A stretch of 38,095 nucleotides of DNA from Streptococcaceae bacterium. Its GTDB lineage: Bacteria; Bacillota; Bacilli; Lactobacillales; Streptococcaceae. The position numbers were made by a program, and so were the translations under genes. Under the pieces are notes generated by a model. That model had not been told where the DNA came from. It did no database searches and was given only the letters and a program-made list of their open reading frames with translations. Below are positions 1,137-38,095 of this stretch, piece after piece (position 1 is the first letter of the stretch; the number at the start of each line of letters is the position of its first letter). The stretch lies in assembly GCA_009779335.1 (NCBI GenBank), contig WREM01000001.1, positions 1-38,095 of the forward strand. The letters run 5' to 3'.

Positions 1137-1250
1137 AAATTCTCCTTTTCTTTCTTTGTATAAATTTTTACAATTACCTTTACTTAACTTAAATGTAATT
1201 GTTTCTTAATTTTAACATAAATAATGAAAAATTTGTGAAATTAAAAATAT

Positions 1251-18096: not shown

Positions 18097-18303
18097 TTAC
18101 TTTACATATTTTTGAATTTTATTATCAAATTTTCCTATGTATTTTCCGACATCGCTCTTTTTGTCAAAATATTGTTTGACGAAATTGACTTCATGTACAT
18201 AAGAGTATCGTGGATATATTTTTCCACCTTTTTGAAAAAACGGTCCTTTACAGCCTAATTTTTTTCTATAAAATGTTTTACTGCTTGATCCACGTCCGCC
18301 CAT
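18097..18303 (-). CDS. Small basic protein with N-terminal MGGRGSSS motif
   Basis: Overlaps the DUF4417 3' end; RBS GAGGTG; Lys-rich. Confidence 0.65.
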   Translation of the reverse strand: MGGRGSSSKTFYRKKLGCKGPFFQKGGKIYPRYSYVHEVNFVKQYFDKKSDVGKYIGKFDNKIQKYVK

Positions 18304-18919
18304 TTTTCAACACCTCGAAACGTTTTATATTTTCATTATCAAAATAAATGACTTCGATATTTTTGAAATCATAGTCTATTGGTTTGCCATAAAGTAAAAT
18401 TTTTTCAGGTTGGATGCGTCGAATCAGTTCGTCCATTCCTGCACGCCATAACTGCTGTGCTTTTGCATTACGAACGCAACCGACAGTGCTGACTGTCACA
18501 ATACTTCCTTCAGGTATGCCCTCAAAACAAAAGGAAAAACTTCTCTCATCTGACCAAGAGAGTGTAGGGATAACATTGATCCCTTCCGATTGCCAGTAAG
18601 CCCCTAAACATCGACTGCGGTAGATATTATAAATTTGCAAGGCGAGAGGCATATCAACATAAAGGCTAAAATCTGGAGAGAAGACACAGTCAAATTTTTT
18701 GAGCAATTTTATATATTTCTCTGGATTCGCCCAAACTCTCTCAAACTGATAATCATCTAAGTAAAAATGGACGCCTTTGTGATAATCCTTTCTTGATTTT
18801 GCATAGTTAAATCCCAAAAGCTCCTTTGGAACTTTCAAACTTTTTTCAATGCTGGGGATTTCAAAATCATTGTCGCCATACTCTGCAATATGCAAATTGT
18901 ATTTTTTAACTGTTCGCAT
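18278..18919 (-). CDS. DUF4417 family protein
   Basis: VHFYLDDYQFERVW, SPDFSLYVDMP, GAYWQSEGINVIPTLSW, FCFEGIP, VSTVG. Confidence 0.85.
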   Translation of the reverse strand: MRTVKKYNLHIAEYGDNDFEIPSIEKSLKVPKELLGFNYAKSRKDYHKGVHFYLDDYQFERVWANPEKYIKLLKKFDCVFSPDFSLYVDMPLALQIYNIYRSRCLGAYWQSEGINVIPTLSWSDERSFSFCFEGIPEGSIVTVSTVGCVRNAKAQQLWRAGMDELIRRIQPEKILLYGKPIDYDFKNIEVIYFDNENIKRFEVLKNGRTWIKQ

Positions 18920-18929
18920 GACAAACTCC

Positions 18930-20360
18930 TTATAATTTTTTAGCTATTTCATAAATAACAGGTACAGTCACGCTGTTTCCTGCTTGCTTATAGAGTTGAG
19001 AGTTACTGTTCACTGCTTCAGCTTTCTCAAAAGTAGAGTCAGGAAAGCCTTGAAGCCTCCAACATTCACGAGGCGTCAGTTTTCTCACTCTCATGTCTTG
19101 TAATACGGCATCAGGTTGTGTGGCAACTGTTCCACTATATCCACTTCTGACTGAACCTCTTGCTTTTGGCTGTAAGCTGATGTTGTCGCCATTATTAGCC
19201 TCTAAGCAAGGTTTGTGGGGGCTGTTGTTTTTGATTAAAACACCTGCATCTGATTTATTTGCTTTTAGCGTTCTACTCAAACCGTTTAATACGCCCCTGT
19301 GATGATTTTGCGAATCGTTGGTATAAAGGCCACCAACCACTACACCGTGTCTATCTTGACCTGTTAAAGTAAACATTGGCTCGCCATTTTCTTTGAATCG
19401 TCTGCCATTTTGACGTTTTTCTGATCGATCAGGAGTAAGAACTGGGATAGCAATTTTAGGCATGCGATTGCCACCGTTGCAGGTGTCGAGTGTTGGGCTG
19501 ATTCCGTCAGTGTCAAAAATTCTTCCAGCTTGTGAGTTGTGACTATTGTTGTAAATATTACCTATTATTTTCGGTATGTTCCCTGAACCACCACCTGCTT
19601 TTACTGTTCGAGTTAATCCTTCAGGATCATAAACATTTTGCTCAAAGTGCCAGCCGTTTTTGGTTTTTCCCTTTAGTGGATTGAGAATTTTCAGACCCTC
19701 GCCTTTATTGGTTGTGAGTGTTGGACTCAATCCATCTGAAGCATAAACGTTCCCATTCATGCCTTTACCACTGGGATTGATATTTCCTATTGCCTGTACA
19801 TGAGCTTTTGTGTCTGTTGCTTCGAGAGGAAAAATTTCTCGTCCACATTCTCCTCTAAGATGTCCAATAATGAACACACGCTCTCGGTTCTGTGGGACGC
19901 CGAAGTTTTTACTGTTAAGCACTTGCCACTCTGCATCGTACCCGAGTTCATCCAACGTAAAGAGAATGGACTCAAATGTTCTGCCTTTGTCGTGAGATAA
20001 AAGCCCCTTGACGTTCTCAAGCAATAATAGGCGTGGTTGGATTTGTTTGGCCGCTCTGGCAATCTCGAAAAAGAGAGTTCCTCGAGTGTCTTCAAATCCA
20101 AGCCGATTTCCTGCAACTGAAAAGGCTTGACAAGGGAAGCCACCTGTGATGACGTCAATTTCTCCCTTGAACTTTGCCCATTCTTTGTCTGTAACTGTTG
20201 TGATGTCATGGTATTCATGTTCTCCTTCTGTGTTATGTATGGCTTTATATGAGGCTCTTGCGAATTTATCAATTTCACAAAAGCCCACACATTCATGTCC
20301 TGTTGCTTCCATTCCTAAGCGAAAACCGCCTATTCCTGCAAATAAATCAAGAAATTTCAT
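18930..20360 (-). CDS. dcm: DNA cytosine-5 methyltransferase with tandem TRD-like modules
   Basis: Motif I FAGIGG, IV GFPCQ, VI ENVKG, VIII PQNRER, IX RKLTPRECWRLQGF, X QAGNSV. Confidence 0.93.
   Translation of the reverse strand: MKFLDLFAGIGGFRLGMEATGHECVGFCEIDKFARASYKAIHNTEGEHEYHDITTVTDKEWAKFKGEIDVITGGFPCQAFSVAGNRLGFEDTRGTLFFEIARAAKQIQPRLLLLENVKGLLSHDKGRTFESILFTLDELGYDAEWQVLNSKNFGVPQNRERVFIIGHLRGECGREIFPLEATDTKAHVQAIGNINPSGKGMNGNVYASDGLSPTLTTNKGEGLKILNPLKGKTKNGWHFEQNVYDPEGLTRTVKAGGGSGNIPKIIGNIYNNSHNSQAGRIFDTDGISPTLDTCNGGNRMPKIAIPVLTPDRSEKRQNGRRFKENGEPMFTLTGQDRHGVVVGGLYTNDSQNHHRGVLNGLSRTLKANKSDAGVLIKNNSPHKPCLEANNGDNISLQPKARGSVRSGYSGTVATQPDAVLQDMRVRKLTPRECWRLQGFPDSTFEKAEAVNSNSQLYKQAGNSVTVPVIYEIAKKL
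19787..20218 (-). CDS. Out-of-frame ORF nested in the C5-MTase gene (beta-polypeptide-like)
   Basis: Long open alternative frame ending ...CSLLDILEENVDEKFFLSKQQTQKL; AAGGAG upstream of ATGs at 20218 and 20209. Confidence 0.5.
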   Translation of the reverse strand: MNTMTSQQLQTKNGQSSREKLTSSQVASLVKPFQLQEIGLDLKTLEELSFSRLPERPNKSNHAYYCLRTSRGFYLTTKAEHLSPFSLRWMNSGTMQSGKCLTVKTSASHRTESVCSLLDILEENVDEKFFLSKQQTQKLMYRQ

Positions 20361-20536
20361 ACTTTCCCTCCAATCAGAGCAGAGGCTTTAATCTCTGCTT
20401 TATTTATAATTTTTGATGGTGGCATGCAGCCTTTGTGTGCAGGGATAAGGATATAAACCTTACATTTTGGACATTTCTGACCATAATGAGCCTGACCTTT
20501 TTTGACCATTTCATGTGGGTCTGTTAATTGAACCAT
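20357..20536 (-). CDS. Small hypothetical protein with CxxC
   Basis: Not in the ORF track. MVQLTDPHEMVKKGQAHYGQKCPKCKVY...GGKV*; overlaps the upstream stop and has an ATGA overlap with the MTase start. Confidence 0.5.
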   Translation of the reverse strand: MVQLTDPHEMVKKGQAHYGQKCPKCKVYILIPAHKGCMPPSKIINKAEIKASALIGGKV

Positions 20537-21114
20537 TTGAGCCTTGTTTCTCCTTTATAGAATTTTTTCCAAACGAACCAAGCGTAAGAAATTGCACTGC
20601 CTTTCATGCTTTCAAAATCGCCATTCATTGCACATTTAAGGCGACTACTTGAGACATAGATGTTTTTAGGTGGATATTGTGAAAATAATTTCTTGCGTGC
20701 TTTGCCCTCCAGATAGCGAATGGGCAAAAATAAAGCGAGCTTTCGCTCGTTTTGTAATAGTCGCATTGCCTGTTCAATAAACTGATTGGCGTATTTATAA
20801 GGTGGATTGGTTAAAATGTCGCCGTGCCACTGCCCTTGATATTCTAAGAAATCAATTTGCTCAAGTGATCGATAGCCACGAGTGACAATATCTGACGACT
20901 TTCCGAGTATGCCATATCTTTTCAAGACACTAACCAAATGACCACCACCTGCTGCACACTCCCAAACATTATTGAAGTCTTCTAATTCAAGTAATAGCTC
21001 AAGTGCTTTTGGTTCAGTTGCATAATAATCTAGGTTATCTCTTTCGTATTCTCTGATATTAGCAAAGCCATTCGTTGCAATATGAGTGACGCTGTTTCCT
21101 GTCCAGTCTTTCAT
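20524..21114 (-). CDS. Small amino (N6-adenine/N4-cytosine) DNA methyltransferase
   Basis: DYYATEP, SAM-binding WECAAGGGHL, catalytic ILTNPPY. Confidence 0.8.
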   Translation of the reverse strand: MKDWTGNSVTHIATNGFANIREYERDNLDYYATEPKALELLLELEDFNNVWECAAGGGHLVSVLKRYGILGKSSDIVTRGYRSLEQIDFLEYQGQWHGDILTNPPYKYANQFIEQAMRLLQNERKLALFLPIRYLEGKARKKLFSQYPPKNIYVSSSRLKCAMNGDFESMKGSAISYAWFVWKKFYKGETRLKWFN

Positions 21115-21395
21115 AGTTTTTTTCTTTTTAACTCCTTATACATGGTTTGATTTCGGGTTTCTGCTCGTTTGAGTTCAGTTTTTAGGGTGACTAATTTTGC
21201 CTTTTTCTGACTTAGAGCTTTCTTGGTTAGTACACCTTTTCGTCTGCTGTTGCCAAAAAAAGTACCTAAAAACTGACTATGGTTAATCTGATGTTCCAAA
21301 TCGCCTATTTTGGAGTGTAAAGATAGCACTTTTTTATTTTGCCGCTTTAATTGTGTCATGCTCACTCCCTTGCTCTTACTGCCACGTCCACCCAC
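21111..21395 (-). CDS. Small basic protein with N-terminal (M)GGRGSKS motif
   Basis: Start reassigned to GTG 21395 after RBS AAAGGAGTGA just past the terL stop; 94 aa, Lys/Arg-rich. Confidence 0.7.
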   Translation of the reverse strand: MGGRGSKSKGVSMTQLKRQNKKVLSLHSKIGDLEHQINHSQFLGTFFGNSRRKGVLTKKALSQKKAKLVTLKTELKRAETRNQTMYKELKRKKL

Positions 21396-21409
21396 ATCTT
21401 TCACTCCTT

Positions 21410-22717
21410 TTAAGCCTTGAGGCGTAATAATTTTGCGTTGTCCATACAGAAATACTGGAATAAATCGCACGTGTGGTCATCTACTTTGACTACTTCAGGC
21501 TTACTGGTACGGATTGTCTTCTCGTCCCACTGATAACGCTTGTGTTCGTCAATGAAGATTGCATTTTCTGGTATGTCCATATAATAAAAACGCCCCTCGC
21601 AGATGAGCGATTGGACGTTGTCGATAAGATTGATTTTGTTTGTTTTCTTGACTGGACTCCATCGGATGTTGAAGTCTCTGTGATACTGATTTCGCAGTGC
21701 AGCCTCTGCACTATCTATGGTACGCCGTAAAATAGGCACTTTCTCATAAGCCTCGCCTGTGGTCTTGATGAAGTTATAAACCATTTGACTGAGCTGTGAC
21801 GGTGCGAGCTTGTTGACCTTACCTGCTGGGCTGTAATAGAGCGTATTGAGCAGTATTACTTTACCGCTTTGTGTAATGCCAAAATGCCCACATGCTGTTG
21901 CTGATTGAGCATGACCACCGTCTAACGCATAACAGCGATTAGTGATAGGGTCATCCTTAAACAGCTCATTGAGTGGTTGGAAGTGCTTCATGTTATAAAC
22001 ATTCGTACCAAGACCAACCACTTCACCCAAGTACATCCACCTATAATAGTCGAGGTCATGCTCTTTGTATCGTGAGATTTTTCGGAGCATTTGGTCACTG
22101 TTAAATCCTCTGACGTCATCTTTGTATGTGCTGTGGTGGATATAATAGTCAGGGTCTTCTTCTCGCTCTGTGACCCACTCATTGATCCAGTCATACGGAT
22201 TCTTCGGTGGATTCCATGAAGCATATACTTCAACTGACCTTCCACCATCGAGCTTCTGTCTGATGTACGTGTCAACGATAGTGTCATATTCTTCTTTGTC
22301 AGAGAACTCAGCCAATTCCTCAAGCCATACTCTTCCAACGTAACCAACGGCTATCTTCTGACCTTTGAGCTTCTGTGCATCATCTACTCCAAAGAAATAA
22401 AAAGCCGTACCAGTGGCACGGTGTACTATCTTCATAGGCGACGTATAGAAATCAAATTGCGAATATTGTCCAAGTTCAATAATTGCCCATTTAACCTGCT
22501 CATATACTGATGTTCTCAGTGTACTTGCTACCTTACGCAAGCAGACCACGTTCATATCAAAGTCACTCAGAAAGTCAATCACGAGCTTAATAGAAATGGC
22601 CGAGGATTTTGTCCCCGACCGACCGCCTTTGAATAATTTATAAGGTTTACCACTTACAAACGCACCCTTGAAAGTGGGATTAAGCAGTCTTGCTATGTTT
22701 ATTGTTCGTTTCTCCAT
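21410..22717 (-). CDS. terL: Terminase large subunit (PBSX/SPP1-like)
   Basis: Walker A KGGRSGTKS, Walker B VWLEE, SWNPP, nuclease ALDGG and DDHTCD. Start ATG 22717. Confidence 0.92.
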   Translation of the reverse strand: MEKRTINIARLLNPTFKGAFVSGKPYKLFKGGRSGTKSSAISIKLVIDFLSDFDMNVVCLRKVASTLRTSVYEQVKWAIIELGQYSQFDFYTSPMKIVHRATGTAFYFFGVDDAQKLKGQKIAVGYVGRVWLEELAEFSDKEEYDTIVDTYIRQKLDGGRSVEVYASWNPPKNPYDWINEWVTEREEDPDYYIHHSTYKDDVRGFNSDQMLRKISRYKEHDLDYYRWMYLGEVVGLGTNVYNMKHFQPLNELFKDDPITNRCYALDGGHAQSATACGHFGITQSGKVILLNTLYYSPAGKVNKLAPSQLSQMVYNFIKTTGEAYEKVPILRRTIDSAEAALRNQYHRDFNIRWSPVKKTNKINLIDNVQSLICEGRFYYMDIPENAIFIDEHKRYQWDEKTIRTSKPEVVKVDDHTCDLFQYFCMDNAKLLRLKA

Positions 22718-23279
22718 TCTCCTCACTCTCTATTTGTCGCTTAATACGCTGTAATGTTGACTGGGATAGCCCTGTCATTTCTTCTGTTTCTTTGTATGAA
22801 TGGCTTTGTAAGAACTCATAGGCTTTTTTATGCCTGTCAGTAATTGTACGTTTAGGGCGACCTTCCTTGTAATTAGGATTATGAGCTTTAGCGTAAGCCT
22901 TACCTTCTTGCGTACGCTCTACAATCATATCTCTTTCAAATTCTGCGAATGATAAAAAGATGTTTCTCATGAGCTTCCCACTTGGTGTATTGTCCAATTT
23001 ACCAAAGGCTAGGATATTTACTGCTATATCTTCAGCAAGTAACTCATCTATAAGTGCAGCCCCTTGTACAACTGAACGTGAAAATCTGTCTAGTTTCGTG
23101 ACAATAAGCTCATCACCAAAACGCAAGAGTTTACGCATTTTATCAAACTCTGGACGGTCATTCTTAGTTCCTGTGTACTTATCGGAGAAGATTTTTTCAG
23201 CTCCTGCTTTTTTCAGCATTTCAATTTGTGTGTCTAAATCCTGTGTTATTGTTGACACTCTCGCATATCCAATTCTCAT
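22680..23279 (-). CDS. Small serine recombinase (resolvase/invertase family)
   Basis: MRIGYARVST, VTKLDRFSRS, FAEFERDMIVERTQEG, GRP, C-terminal HTH. Start ATG 23279 after GGAGG. Confidence 0.92.
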   Translation of the reverse strand: MRIGYARVSTITQDLDTQIEMLKKAGAEKIFSDKYTGTKNDRPEFDKMRKLLRFGDELIVTKLDRFSRSVVQGAALIDELLAEDIAVNILAFGKLDNTPSGKLMRNIFLSFAEFERDMIVERTQEGKAYAKAHNPNYKEGRPKRTITDRHKKAYEFLQSHSYKETEEMTGLSQSTLQRIKRQIESEENGETNNKHSKTA

Positions 23280-23307
23280 GATACATCCTCCATATTTTCT
23301 GAACATA

Positions 23308-32125: not shown

Positions 32126-33556
32126 GTGAAAAAAATGGCGGGTTATACCCGTGTCAGCACGCTTGAACAAAAAGAAGAGGGTTATTCCCTCGAAATGCAA
32201 CAAGAACGCATGGACGGCTTCTGCAAAGCCAAAGGCTGGAAGCTCGTCAAAATCTTTGAAGACGGTGGCAATTCAGGTAAAGACCTCAATCGTCCAGAAA
32301 TGCAAAAACTAATTAGCGATTGCGAGGCTGGGCGATATGATGCCGTGATTGTTTATAAACTCGACCGACTCAGTCGAAGCCAAAAAGACACCCTCTATCT
32401 CATCGAGGATGTCTTTCTAAAAAACAATATTGAGTTTGTCAGTGTCCAAGAATCCATTGATACCAGTACACCTGTTGGACGTGCCATGATTGGTATATTA
32501 TCTGCTTTCGCTCAGTTAGAGCGAGAACAAATCAAGGAACGGATGCAGATGGGGAAGATTGGACGCATGAAAAAAGGTAAGCCAGCCTGTTGGGCAACGC
32601 CGCCTTTTGGATATACTTACACTAAGGGAGACGACGCTTTGCGATTGACAGAATACGCACCCATCGTCAAAAAAATGTATGAAGACTATTTGGCAGGTCA
32701 ACCTCAAGCTAAAATACTTGAACAATTAAACGCCGAGGGACACATCGGCAAAAAACAACCGTGGGCTTATAAGGTTATTAGAGACGTCTTATCGTGCATC
32801 ACATATACTGGGGTGGTTACATATCGAGGGGAGGTATTCAAGGGCAACCACGAGGCTATTATTGACAAGGAGACGTTTGATAAGACACAGATAGAAATGG
32901 AACGCCGTCAAAAAGAAGCCTATGCCAAGTACAATATGACACGACCTTTTCAATCCAAATATTTATTATCAGGACTTCTCTATTGTGGACTTTGTGATTC
33001 GAGTTTCACTATTGGCTTACGCAGTTTACACAAAGACGGCACACGTAAGAAATTTTATTTTTGTACCAACTCTAAAAAGAGTGTGCACGGTAGTTGGAGA
33101 AAAACCAATGATTGTCAGGCTAAAAAATACGACCTTTATGAACTGGAAGAAAATATCCTCCAGCAACTTGAAGCCATTCGGACAAAAAAGGTGGACTTTG
33201 GAGCAGACCAGGAACGCAAGGATGAAAAAGAAAGAATCAAACTACTTGAGAAACAAAAAAAGAAGCTGGATAACCAGCTCAAGCGATTGGTAGATTTGTA
33301 CGTGGACGATAAAATCAGATTGGATGTGCTCGATGCCAAACGTGACAAAATCGATCAGGAAATGGCCATTATTGATAAGCAGTTGCAACCGACAAAGCGA
33401 ATTGATAAATCAGAAGTCTTGGCCAAAATAACCACACTCAAGCAGGACGTTCGCAAGATGGACTATGACGAATTGAAGAAATTACTGCGTTCTCTCATTA
33501 AAAAAATCACCTTGAAAGGCGATGAAATGAAGATCCAGTGGGTTTTTGACTTATAG
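32126..33556 (+). CDS. int: Large serine integrase (TP901-1/A118-like)
   Basis: YTRVST, VYKLDRLSRS, AFAQLEREQIKER, PPFGY, zinc ribbon LLSGLLYCGLC...YFC...C, coiled coil. Confidence 0.95.
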   Translation: MKKMAGYTRVSTLEQKEEGYSLEMQQERMDGFCKAKGWKLVKIFEDGGNSGKDLNRPEMQKLISDCEAGRYDAVIVYKLDRLSRSQKDTLYLIEDVFLKNNIEFVSVQESIDTSTPVGRAMIGILSAFAQLEREQIKERMQMGKIGRMKKGKPACWATPPFGYTYTKGDDALRLTEYAPIVKKMYEDYLAGQPQAKILEQLNAEGHIGKKQPWAYKVIRDVLSCITYTGVVTYRGEVFKGNHEAIIDKETFDKTQIEMERRQKEAYAKYNMTRPFQSKYLLSGLLYCGLCDSSFTIGLRSLHKDGTRKKFYFCTNSKKSVHGSWRKTNDCQAKKYDLYELEENILQQLEAIRTKKVDFGADQERKDEKERIKLLEKQKKKLDNQLKRLVDLYVDDKIRLDVLDAKRDKIDQEMAIIDKQLQPTKRIDKSEVLAKITTLKQDVRKMDYDELKKLLRSLIKKITLKGDEMKIQWVFDL

Positions 33557-34309: not shown

Positions 34310-34340
34310 ACTTTACTTAAAATATATGGAGGACAAATAT

Positions 34341-34592
34341 ATGGAAAATACAGCACCAGTTTCAGATTTGAGATCATATAATCAAACCTTAAGCGACGTT
34401 AGGGAAGGTTCACACCTTGTTTTAACAAAAAACGGTAAGGCCAAGTACGCTGTACTTGATATTGATGAGTACAAAAAAACACAAGCTACAATACAATTTT
34501 TCAAGGAAATGCAAAAAGGCTATGACTCCTTAAAAAATGAGCCATTAGTGGATCATGATGAATTGATGCAAGAGTTGAGAAGTTTAGCATGA
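34341..34592 (+). CDS. Phd/YefM family antitoxin
   Basis: PVSDLRSYNQTL...LTKNGKAKYAVLDIDEY; start ATG 34341 after GGAGG. Confidence 0.85.
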   Translation: MENTAPVSDLRSYNQTLSDVREGSHLVLTKNGKAKYAVLDIDEYKKTQATIQFFKEMQKGYDSLKNEPLVDHDELMQELRSLA

Positions 34593-34906
34593 GTTACATT
34601 GTACATGAGTCTCAACAATTCAGAAGAGACACTAGAGAAGCTGTTTATTATAAAAAAATAAATGGTACATTCAAAAGAAATATTGATAAATTTATTGACT
34701 CTATTGATAAAACCGTTTTAGAGCGATTAAAAGAAAGTCCTGGAAGTGGCTCAAATGTAGCTGCAAGGATAGACTTAGAAACAAAATTAAAATATATACC
34801 GATTGATGATTACTTACTCTTTTATGAAATTAAATCAAAAAATACGGTAGAAATCGTCAGATTCTTGCCAGGCAAAAGCGATTGGATAAATACACTTTTT
34901 AACTAA
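34589..34906 (+). CDS. RelE/ParE family toxin
   Basis: ATGA overlap with the antitoxin; LKESPGSG, YLLFYEI...VEIVRFL. Confidence 0.8.
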   Translation: MSYIVHESQQFRRDTREAVYYKKINGTFKRNIDKFIDSIDKTVLERLKESPGSGSNVAARIDLETKLKYIPIDDYLLFYEIKSKNTVEIVRFLPGKSDWINTLFN

Positions 34907-35054: not shown

Positions 35055-35519
35055 CTATTCTCCAAAAAGTCGAGCAAAGAATCCTTTGCTTTTTTGATGC
35101 TCGAGCTCTTCATAATCTAGCTGTAATTGCTCATTTTTTTCAAGTGCTTTATTAAAATTTGCATTAGCCGTGGCAACATTGAAATTAGCTTGCTCTATAA
35201 GTTCTACAAATTTAGCACTTTCTTCATGTGCTTTAATTTGGTAGTTTTCAATCTGCTTTTCAAGTAGTGCATTTCTATCTTTTAATTCCTGTATAACATC
35301 ATTTGAGTTCATACGTTCATAGGTACTTTGATAAGTAGCCTGCTTTTCTATAAACATAGATTTTAATTGATCTTGCTCGCTATCTGAAAAGTATCTGATT
35401 CCATCTTGAATAGTACCTAATTCAGTACCTTTACGTCTCAGATAATATACTTTATTTTCAAGTGCACGTTTTTCAATCCCAATTTCTCGAGATAGTTCTA
35501 ATAGTGTTTTATTTGCCAT
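35055..35519 (-). CDS. RocS/DUF536-like DNA- and membrane-binding segregation protein
   Basis: N-terminal HTH (KTLLELSREIGIEK), coiled coil, C-terminal amphipathic helix KSKGFFARLFGE. Confidence 0.75.
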   Translation of the reverse strand: MANKTLLELSREIGIEKRALENKVYYLRRKGTELGTIQDGIRYFSDSEQDQLKSMFIEKQATYQSTYERMNSNDVIQELKDRNALLEKQIENYQIKAHEESAKFVELIEQANFNVATANANFNKALEKNEQLQLDYEELEHQKSKGFFARLFGE

Positions 35520-35535
35520 ACTTTAATTTTATCAA

Positions 35536-35568
35536 AAAAGTACATGAAAAGCACATGATAAGCACTTT
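35536..35568. repeat. Three imperfect 11 bp direct repeats in the promoter of the RocS-like gene
   Basis: AAAAGTACATG AAAAGCACATG ATAAGCACTTT. Confidence 0.55.
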
Positions 35569-35584
35569 ACAATAATTAAAATTA

Positions 35585-36065
35585 TGTAAAATAAAAGTTT
35601 TTGTCTATGTGAAGTCTTTCACAATATGATACCAATCGGTAACTGATTTCGGAGCTTGAAGCGAGTCTCCACCCTAAGTCTCTTAAAAAATTAAAAAACT
35701 CAGGCGAGTGTTCAATCGTATAACTCGATACGTCACTCTTGCTCGTCTTGATTTTACGCTCACGTTTCCCTTGCAACCTTTTGATAGGTAATCAAGCCTC
35801 TCCACCTATTGGTGGAACGCTTCCGTCCCAGACCTTTTTGTATATCAACGAGGATGTCTTCTCCATACCAGAGGTGAAACTTAACATAGTACAAAATAGC
35901 TTGTATTCACGAGATAGCAGCACAACTAACTGAAACGCCCCCATTCTAGGCGTATGATGCTACTATACGGGCAAGTTTCTGTGATTGCTAGGCTTTCCTT
36001 ACCTCTATCGTGTTATTCCTCTATCAGTGATCACCATTACATAGACTCATCAACATATTCAATTT
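35585..36065 (-). ncRNA. Large structured ncRNA, ROOL-like
   Basis: Terminal helix GTCTATGT (36039-36046) / ACATAGAC (35603-35610); many internal hairpins; GC higher than flanks; no credible ORF. The family call is from recalled resemblance to ROOL RNAs. Confidence 0.65.
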
Positions 36066-36130
36066 TAAGCGTCAAAAAAATCAAGGAAGCAGTCCCTTGA
36101 TTGTTATATATTTTGCTTAATATTCAATAT

Positions 36131-36220
36131 TTGACATTATATCTTTTTTTGATATAATAAAGGTACAAATAAAGAAATATTAAGCAACAACAATCTTGGC
36201 GGAGGGTAGTTGCTTTTTCT
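36131..36220 (+). ncRNA. Promoter plus short countertranscript-like RNA
   Basis: TTGACA-16-TATAAT with extended TG (36131-36158); hairpin AAGCAAC...TCTTGGCGGA...GTTGCTT+T-run. Confidence 0.5.
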
Positions 36221-36292
36221 TTTGTATTATTTTTTAACCTTTCCTATTATAACAAAATTTTCCCAAAAAAGAAATAATAAGAATATTATTAT

Positions 36293-36378: not shown

Positions 36379-36810
36379 TTATTTCATAATCTGTGTAAGT
36401 CTTTCATTTAACGCAATCAGATCATTACGATATTTTTCAACCTTAGAATTAAGCTCTGATATTTTTTTCTGTGCCTCGACTATTTGATTTTCAGACCCTG
36501 AAACTTTCTTTTTCTGAAGATCTAATATTAGCTTTGTTTGCTCATATTTTTTATTCAATATATCCTTTTCGGATTGTAGTTCTTTAATTTCTTTTTCTTT
36601 ATTATCAAGTTTTATTTTATCTTGATTGTTTGTGTTTTTTATATCCTTAATTTGTTGCTCCTGTTTCGCAACTTCTGCTCTTAAATCTTGATTTTTTACA
36701 CGATAGCCTAAAAGAATAAATAGTGTCATTAAAAAATAAACTACAAAGAACCAGAATAAAAAAGTATTACTTGTAAGTAGATTTACCATGATTTTGTTAA
36801 TTTTCCTCAT
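36379..36810 (-). CDS. Membrane-anchored coiled-coil protein
   Basis: N-terminal TM helix followed by a Lys/Glu/Gln coiled coil; overlaps the ParM-like stop. Confidence 0.7.
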   Translation of the reverse strand: MRKINKIMVNLLTSNTFLFWFFVVYFLMTLFILLGYRVKNQDLRAEVAKQEQQIKDIKNTNNQDKIKLDNKEKEIKELQSEKDILNKKYEQTKLILDLQKKKVSGSENQIVEAQKKISELNSKVEKYRNDLIALNERLTQIMK

Positions 36811-38095
36811 TTGTCTCTTTTATTAGTTTCCCAAGATCTTCTTTTATTTTTTTCAATTCCTTTTCACGCTCTACGTTTGCCTGTGATTCCGATTCAAAAT
36901 CAGATTCAGAAACTAGAGATTCTGAAGCACTCATCACTTCTTCCTGTGATTCAATAGCTTTTTCTTCGATCACGACTGTTTCTTGAACGTCAGAAGCCGT
37001 ATCATTTTGTTCGGAAACAAGACTTTTATCTGAAGAGTCTTCATAAATTTCTGATGAAACTGCTTCTTGTTCTGTTTTCTCTTCAGACGTTACAGAAGTA
37101 TTCTCAGGCACAGCTATGGAGTTTTTAGAGTTGTTTTTTCTTGCAAATAATATTTTTCCGTATTTATAAAAACCACGTGCATTTGCAAGCTCAGATTCAT
37201 CAGTAAAAATCAATCGTCCAAAATATTCTTCTCCGATTTCCTCTAGCAGAACTTCCAAGCTCTCTTTTACAAGTAAATTTGAACCTCCACCAGTCATTAT
37301 AATATAATCAATTTCCTCAAGATTTGGGAATTTTTCAGTGATGATGGGTGCAACTGTAAAACGAGTGTATTTTTCAATTTCTTGAACAACAATCTTGGTA
37401 ATATCTTTACTGTTAGCAGGATTATTATTAGGACGATAAATATAGCCTTCATCTTCCGAATCTCCTGACCGCAAAATTTCTTCAATAATGGAAGATTTTG
37501 CTGAATTTATTTGACGTCCGATTTCATTGATTATCGTTTGAATACCATAAAAACGCTCATAATCTAAAGGAGATGGGGCCATATTTTCTACTTCATTAAT
37601 CAAAATAGATCCACCACCAATATCAACAATTCCCACTCTACCTTTTGTAAATGTGTTAATTGGATTAAGATATTTATCAAACGACATTTCAATCATCGCC
37701 CCCATATATTGTGGACGTAATGTTAAATACTCCTCTGACTTAATTTCAATTATATATTCTTCGCCGTTAATAAAAACAGTGTGTCGCCCAATTAAAAATT
37801 CTTTCAAAAATTGTATGGTTTTACCATCTTTATTCATTTCACTTGTAGATAGTCCAAGAAGTAAATGAACTTCTAAAGCTCTGTTTTTTTCGACTCTATA
37901 ATCCATTGCCAATCGTCCTAGAGCAAATTTCAAAATTCTTTGAACTTTCTTTTGCTCCATACGAGTTGTATACCCATAAGTATCGATTATTTTTTCAGAT
38001 AATGATCGATAGGCATTTAATTCAGAACCCCAAATAAATTTGTCTTCTTCATCTGATAATTGATAAATATCATTTTTATGTACTTGGAGATCTCC
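36797..38095 (-). CDS. ParM/StbA-like actin ATPase with acidic C-terminal extension (5' end outside window)
   Basis: LLLGL, RPQYMGA, VGIVDIGGGS, IIMTGGGSN, ANARGFYKYG. The frame stays open from 37960 to the window end. Confidence 0.8.
   Translation of the reverse strand, partial: GDLQVHKNDIYQLSDEEDKFIWGSELNAYRSLSEKIIDTYGYTTRMEQKKVQRILKFALGRLAMDYRVEKNRALEVHLLLGLSTSEMNKDGKTIQFLKEFLIGRHTVFINGEEYIIEIKSEEYLTLRPQYMGAMIEMSFDKYLNPINTFTKGRVGIVDIGGGSILINEVENMAPSPLDYERFYGIQTIINEIGRQINSAKSSIIEEILRSGDSEDEGYIYRPNNNPANSKDITKIVVQEIEKYTRFTVAPIITEKFPNLEEIDYIIMTGGGSNLLVKESLEVLLEEIGEEYFGRLIFTDESELANARGFYKYGKILFARKNNSKNSIAVPENTSVTSEEKTEQEAVSSEIYEDSSDKSLVSEQNDTASDVQETVVIEEKAIESQEEVMSASESLVSESDFESESQANVEREKELKKIKEDLGKLIKETNEEN

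Follow-up and report, generated by a model that had tools for sequence, protein, structure and literature searches.

We propose that a temperate phage in the window, i.e., the whole 38,095-nt stretch of DNA analysed, carries a stand-alone accessory gene whose product would be an uncatalogued non-coding RNA of about 455 nt, with ends predicted to be locked by a helix and a putative role in trans as a scaffold or decoy. We assign this reading, whose functional part is argued by analogy, a probability of slightly more than 0.5. It is probable that the region truly specifies some kind of large structured RNA, and the reading as a large structured non-coding RNA is moderately supported; the odds that the RNA represents an uncatalogued family are even. 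The earlier note had taken the region for a compact ROOL RNA, with a new large RNA as the fallback. The fallback is the better reading. The candidate matches no Rfam family and has a closing helix and a strongly folding 3′ domain; the fold of its whole length is borderline.

Extent, composition and predicted fold

The GC content of the candidate is 40-45%, compared with 20-29% in the flanks; the earlier note had described the region as richer in GC than its flanks. Among the 18 ORF-free gaps of at least 400 nt in the assembly, which is 71% complete and in which the window is the entire contig C1, the candidate is the richest in GC (43%) and the tmRNA is second (41.5%). The top of the ten next GC-rich gaps outside C1 is this tmRNA, and one other holds a tRNA and an L17 element; since 8 of the 10 have no Rfam match, GC richness is a loose marker only. 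Stop codons number 7-12 per frame in all six frames, against about 11 expected by arithmetic for a random sequence of the same composition, and the only ORFs inside the candidate are two of 64 aa, which bears out the earlier description of short spurious ORFs. On the minus strand, the candidate also contains two exact 8-nt purine-rich direct repeats (35666-35673 / 35799-35806 and 36002-36009 / 36018-36025).

Table 1. Positions of the candidate RNA, its predicted helices and the neighbouring elements in the window
Feature	Position	Strand	Basis or remark
Proposed non-coding RNA gene, about 457 nt (~455), putative ends	35598..36054	-	GC step, six-frame stops, closing helix, no Rfam match
Closing helix, 8 bp Watson-Crick, 5′ strand	36039..36046	-	Present in MFE and centroid structures
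Closing helix, 3′ strand, then A-run and U-rich tail	35603..35610	-	Sequence and helix list
Stem ACGCC / GGCGT	35953 / 35939	-	
Stem TCCACC / GGTGGA	35816 / 35806	-	Part of a 7-bp hairpin (35800..35817), AATA loop, pair probability ~0.9
Stem CTTGATT / AATCAAG	35796 / 35753	-	
Stem ACCT / AGGT	35789 / 35779	-	
Stem GGAG / CTCC	35670 / 35654	-	
Stem ATCAGTT / GATTGGT	35647 / 35637	-	
Stem TGTGAA / TTCACA	35623 / 35613	-	Last hairpin, 3-nt overlap with closing helix
Predicted four-way junction, the best-defined domain; hairpins at 35738-35706, 35704-35673 and 35671-35657	35652..35744	-	MFE = centroid
14-bp hairpin, three G-U pairs, no U tail	35673..35704	-	1/600 shuffles; absent from the stem list of the earlier note
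Candidate 10-bp helix 35966-35957 / 35923-35914 around the ACGCC / GGCGT hairpin	35914..35966	-	Pair probability only 0.3-0.5
Alternative 10-bp long-range helix 35941-35932 / 35823-35814, then ACCA	35810..35941	-	Competes with two local hairpins
TAAAAT, putative -10-like hexamer, 7 nt ahead of the proposed start and with no recognisable -35	36062..36067	-	Read from sequence
Intrinsic-terminator-like hairpin and U tail, ending about 25 nt upstream of the RNA	36072..36102	-	Terminator scan
Downstream 154-aa ORF, like lactococcal plasmid hypothetical proteins	35055..35519	-	Own extended -10-like element just before ATG, read from sequence
Large serine integrase of the prophage	32126..33556	+	
Phd/YefM antitoxin and ParE/RelE toxin pair, same accessory region	34326..34906	+	
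Likely left attachment core, 7 bp, directly before the RBS of the gene for the KxYKxGKxW surface protein	1155..1161		
Likely right attachment core, same 7 bp as the left core	36221..36227		
ParM-like actin gene	36797-38095	-	

All eight stem pairs named in the earlier note were found on the minus strand. The closing helix goes beyond chance, whereas most of the others, with 4-7 bp, do not, and several are mutually exclusive. Helices equivalent to the closing helix occurred in 0.65% of 2000 dinucleotide shuffles when the ends were informed by the helix, and in 2.2-4.1% of shuffles when the ends were set independently of it, from the terminator and the junction in a relative. Additionally, the position of this helix matches the GC edges of the candidate. 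The 14-bp hairpin exists on the minus strand only (the plus-strand maximum is 7 bp) and, with its G-U pairs, favours the minus strand; it has no U tail and is therefore not a terminator.

The last 148 nt of the candidate fold with a z of -3.41, none of 200 shuffles being as good and the MFE structure coinciding with the centroid, in a domain that was picked after a sliding scan whose windows there gave z -3.05 and -2.36. In the 5′ two-thirds of the minus strand, no sliding window fell below z -1.1, and the ensemble is diffuse, with many competing helices. The MFE of the whole region is borderline on the minus strand, with z -1.68 (6/100 shuffles as good) and z -1.87 (4/100). On the plus strand it gave z -2.49 (1/100), so whole-length folding alone cannot pick the strand. 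Overall helix counts of the candidate equalled those of the shuffles; the same measure also failed to separate true ROOLs from shuffles, which makes it uninformative here. Among the calibration folds, three enterococcal-type ROOLs (z -3.3 to -4.7) and RNase P RNA (z -3.1) were all stronger than the candidate, while the cryo-EM-validated L. salivarius ROOL reached only z -0.30; a modest whole-length z thus does not exclude a real ornate RNA. Folding energy neither proves nor refutes a structured RNA here. An 8-nt palindrome (36034-36027) was considered as a dimer site and rejected, since 82% of shuffles contain one.

The promoter scan called no canonical promoter for the candidate, the TAAAAT hexamer not being called, and no intrinsic terminator was found at its 3′ end. 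Three terminator-like hairpins were found in the region, against 0.6 expected. In the mechanism that we propose, transcription would start near 36054 from the TAAAAT element, and the upstream terminator would insulate the RNA gene from host-side read-through. Pairing of the ends could guard the RNA from exonucleases and so allow its accumulation in the lysogen or on induction. The folded RNA may then serve in trans as a scaffold or decoy that is stable and free of protein, by analogy with the proposals for ROOL and GOLLD.

Comparison with known RNA families and search for relatives

With Rfam 15, no match was obtained in the whole window at gathering scores, and only six unrelated weak matches appeared at E<=10 in the 901 nt around the candidate. 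The ROOL model (RF03087) had 0 matches in the genome at E<=10, which places the candidate below the ROOL gathering threshold of 99.1 bits; as positive controls, ten ROOLs scored 200-246 bits and the short, divergent 520-nt L. salivarius ROOL scored 130 bits in an 851-nt search. The GOLLD model (RF02032), including its conserved 3′ domain, likewise gave no match at E<=10 in the genome or the region, so that both of the covariance-model searches proposed in the earlier note came back empty. Neither the candidate nor a profile of ten ROOLs gave any match with nhmmer. Pairwise comparison of the candidate with four ROOLs gave z values of -0.1 to 1.1, against 6.7-21 between ROOLs. Of 155 14-column blocks derived from five diverse ROOLs, two matched at p<0.05, where about 8 were expected, and they were not collinear. 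In a long-gap profile alignment, the candidate reached z 0.9 and the held-out L. salivarius ROOL 4.5, in a test whose control had power in one of three gap settings and failed in the other two. Based on these sequence comparisons, ROOL membership is not supported, and the earlier assignment to a compact ROOL is not upheld.

The candidate resembles ROOL as a large, GC-enriched, ORF-free gene of low-GC Gram-positives and their prophages, and in its predicted ends, which are paired in a closing helix (P1 in ROOL; 8 bp here) with a small hairpin just before the 3′ strand. An end-closing helix is a generic feature of many stable RNAs. The defining traits of ROOL also include a pseudoknotted multi-junction fold (P1-P16) backed by covariation and an abundant, stable transcript that assembles into RNA-only hexamers or octamers. 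The candidate differs from ROOL in that the 16-helix architecture and the pseudoknots are not recoverable, and in that no tRNA genes lie near it, whereas ROOL and GOLLD are often near tRNA genes; ARAGORN called no tRNA gene in the window. Between its putative ends, the candidate (~457 nt) is also below the size of ROOL, about 510-660 nt. Published work gives an average ROOL length of 581 (PMC5737381) and a length of 507-526 for the L. salivarius ROOL (PMC5643018), places ROOL and GOLLD in prophages (PMC5737381; PMC12286853) and describes them as forming RNA-only cages of unknown purpose (PMC12286853; PMC12990946). A remote relationship to ROOL is conceivable, and more divergent members may sit in the published expanded alignment (PMC12286853). 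An order-wide search found ROOL in 10 of the 134 genomes that came from one family (L002-L011), and in 0 of the 19 genomes sampled from the host's family.

GOLLD shares with the candidate the niche of a large prophage-associated RNA of Lactobacillales, but the candidate is about half as long and has no tRNA cluster. RNase P type B (RF00011) is of a similar size class and shares some short look-alike stretches towards the 5′ end, and in pairwise comparisons two of the five RNase P RNAs taken from relatives gave z values as high as 2.4. This family was nevertheless rejected: there was no model or HMM match, whereas controls score 288-355 bits, and the motifs of the universally conserved regions of RNase P are absent from the candidate. 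Group I and II introns were also discarded, with no Rfam match and no match to short catalytic-core motifs. ORF-less group IIC introns (HYER type) are comparable in size and in position just 3′ of an intrinsic terminator, and group IIC introns prefer insertion just downstream of intrinsic terminators; no intron 5′ motif was found on either strand, and there was no Rfam group II match.

The candidate is a singleton in all phage, plasmid, genome, viral and metagenome data searched. No blastn match was obtained at E<=1 among 50,697 phage and 72,556 plasmid records, and at E<=10 the two halves of the candidate each matched two phage records, over 27-42 nt inside genes. Genome samples came from six families of the order. 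DNA searches returned 0 of 100 relatives' genomes at E<=0.001; 30 of 400 same-family genomes had 19-48-nt matches, none extendable, and three other families gave 1/51, 0/140 and 0/401 genomes. A sequence-only model (R1), which covers 397 of the 457 nt, matched 18 of 150 relatives at E<=0.1, with about 15 expected; 14 of its 19 match places were in open frames (8 viewed as alignments). Further samples searched with R1 yielded 2/26 and 4/134, the latter being two IleRS genes and two AT-rich upstream regions.

Exact-pattern scans returned 0, 36, 7, 23 and 3 loci in viral data, at least 119 in the metagenome collection (39 of 64 parts covered) and 11 in genomes, none of them similar beyond the pattern. 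The regions beside 11 integrase and 62 lysin loci gave a best nhmmer E of 4.6, and nine regions around ParM-like genes contained no homologue of the candidate. Relatives of less than roughly 70% identity escape blastn and exact patterns, and these negatives refer to the collections searched. The phage itself is isolated, its portal protein being at most 52% identical to that of any phage record. Among sequencing runs, the only ones that contain this DNA in full are five termite-gut metagenomes, all of them possible sources of it; no RNA run was listed as containing it, which says nothing about expression.

Alternative explanations and significance

The region could instead hold no functional large RNA, being decayed or scrambled acquired DNA in the accessory region, of which no more than a small 3′ part would be structured. 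We consider this rather unlikely. The singleton status and the borderline whole-length folding are compatible with it, as is a base composition equal to that of coding genes of the same phage, which is also similar to that of ROOL; moreover, three other hairpins of at least 14 bp occur in the 38-kb window. Nevertheless, 7-12 stops per frame leave no residual reading frame, the closing helix coincides with the GC edges, and the flanking signals are sharp. A very divergent compact ROOL, which would lack the 5′ P2-P3 domain, have acquired an internal insertion and assemble into a ROOL-type cage, is doubtful. Over 8 kb, a core model built from seven ROOLs, run with filters off, scores best at 35957-36007, within the candidate (11 bits, E 0.035 on a rough calibration), short segment look-alikes can be placed in ROOL order by eye, and the 3′ layout is similar, with three hairpins, the last hairpin and the closing strand. 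The core match nonetheless consists of two short motifs with 158 model positions skipped, and the absence of an Rfam match, against 130 bits for the L. salivarius ROOL, the empty nhmmer searches and the chance-level pairwise, block and long-gap profile tests all count against such a relationship.

A cis-acting leader (riboswitch or attenuator) of the 154-aa gene is very unlikely. The candidate is on the strand of this gene, 80 nt upstream of it, some of its helices exclude each other, and it lacks a terminator of its own, as a leader might. The gene, however, has its own promoter-like element, and one 178-nt contig of a relative (runs X6 and X7, possibly one data set; low depth, 3.5) retains the start of the gene and its promoter region with sequence unlike that of the window from 35590, both of which make a leader role less likely. 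The two runs have no coverage of the RNA stretch, which proves nothing by itself. Additionally, 457 nt is long for a leader, and no T-box motif was found in the candidate. Two relatives of the 154-aa protein were found, and it had 0 loci in the viral and metagenome collections. Still less probable is the precursor of a tRNA-acceptor mimic, from which an internal 132-nt piece ending in ACCA would be excised as a tRNA/tmRNA decoy. This idea comes from the alternative long-range helix, noticed by eye, which resembles a tRNA acceptor stem with a G-U third pair, followed by ACCA; a third-pair G-U is an alanine identity element. Against it, there is no T-arm motif and no ARAGORN or Rfam call, which also led us to reject tRNA and tmRNA as such, the helix has to compete with a hairpin whose pair probability is ~0.9, and the host has its own tmRNA, encoded elsewhere in the assembly.

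The reading as a stand-alone phage RNA gene has a more ambitious form, in which the candidate would found a new class of large ornate RNAs of phages, distinct from ROOL, GOLLD and OLE, that fold without protein and self-assemble into a defined multimer at a size well below ROOL; we regard this form as unlikely. If it were true, the location of the RNA in a small temperate phage, as a cassette that can be separated, would permit a clean deletion test of the role of such RNAs. Among the papers covered by the literature search, no description was found of a comparable RNA, neither ROOL nor GOLLD, in a lactococcal prophage. What large ornate RNAs do in bacteria and phages is an open question in recent work (PMC12286853; PMC12990946). 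If the stand-alone reading is true, a shorter, unrelated example in a 35-kb temperate phage would mean that phages reached the large-ornate-RNA solution more than once. It would also provide a compact structural target. This value is limited for now because the candidate is a single sequence from an uncultured host.

Probable position within the prophage and neighbouring elements

A tailed temperate phage occupies 1.7-33.5 kb of the window, with lysin, holin, tail, head, terminase, replication, repressor and large serine integrase genes. Past the integrase, the order is small phage-type ORFs, the Phd/ParE pair, the 154-aa ORF, the candidate, a coiled-coil ORF and the ParM-like gene. The host is probably a Lactococcus-like member of the Streptococcaceae, to judge from the family structure and from the Lactococcus plasmid matches of a neighbouring protein. 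Large serine integrases use an imperfectly symmetric phage site. When the proposed attachment cores, which are about 2.7 kb from the integrase gene, are joined, the phage-side arms have 11/24 symmetric positions at 2 of 7 candidate centres, including a 7-of-8 block, compared with 3-6/24 for the host-side arms. The host-side join would put a TATAAT element before the RBS of the KxYKxGKxW surface-protein gene; insertion would thus separate this gene from its promoter-like element, and excision could switch the gene on.

In same-genus genomes, a ParM-like gene 45-51% identical to that of the window lies amid chromosomal genes (G005, G010, G019; L026-L030). These genes adjoin cell-surface protein genes rather than plasmid functions, and they are split in some genomes; in G010, the ParM-like gene precedes a KxYKxGKxW gene. 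Because of the attachment cores, the arm symmetry and this chromosomal context, the candidate likely lies ~170 bp inside the prophage end, in the accessory region, whereas the ParM-like gene outside the prophage probably belongs to the host. Of the segregation and stability setting described in the earlier note, the Phd/ParE pair thus shares the accessory region with the candidate, whereas the ParM-like gene probably does not belong to it. Contig breaks near 36223-36252 were considered as a prophage end and are explained by a promoter-like stretch common to other contigs. The 143-aa ORF showed no similarity to a 180-aa gene at a comparable position in G010.

Several further elements were observed in the window. 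Short direct repeats with 11-nt spacing (35525-35570) overlap the promoter-like region of the 154-aa ORF and are a possible operator; this gene may be leaderless. On the plus strand, 36131-36222 contains a perfect sigma-70 promoter (12/12, with TG) firing towards the prophage end, followed by a hairpin and a U run, and is likely a small RNA of ~65 nt divergent from the candidate. Downstream of the lysin gene, on the minus strand, a promoter-like element, a short GC-richer stretch and a terminator-like hairpin (1570-1690) form a possible small RNA. At 18278-23306, two DNA methyltransferase genes and a nuclease-like gene separate the gene for the terminase large subunit from that for the portal protein, and a resolvase/invertase is located between the two terminase subunit genes.
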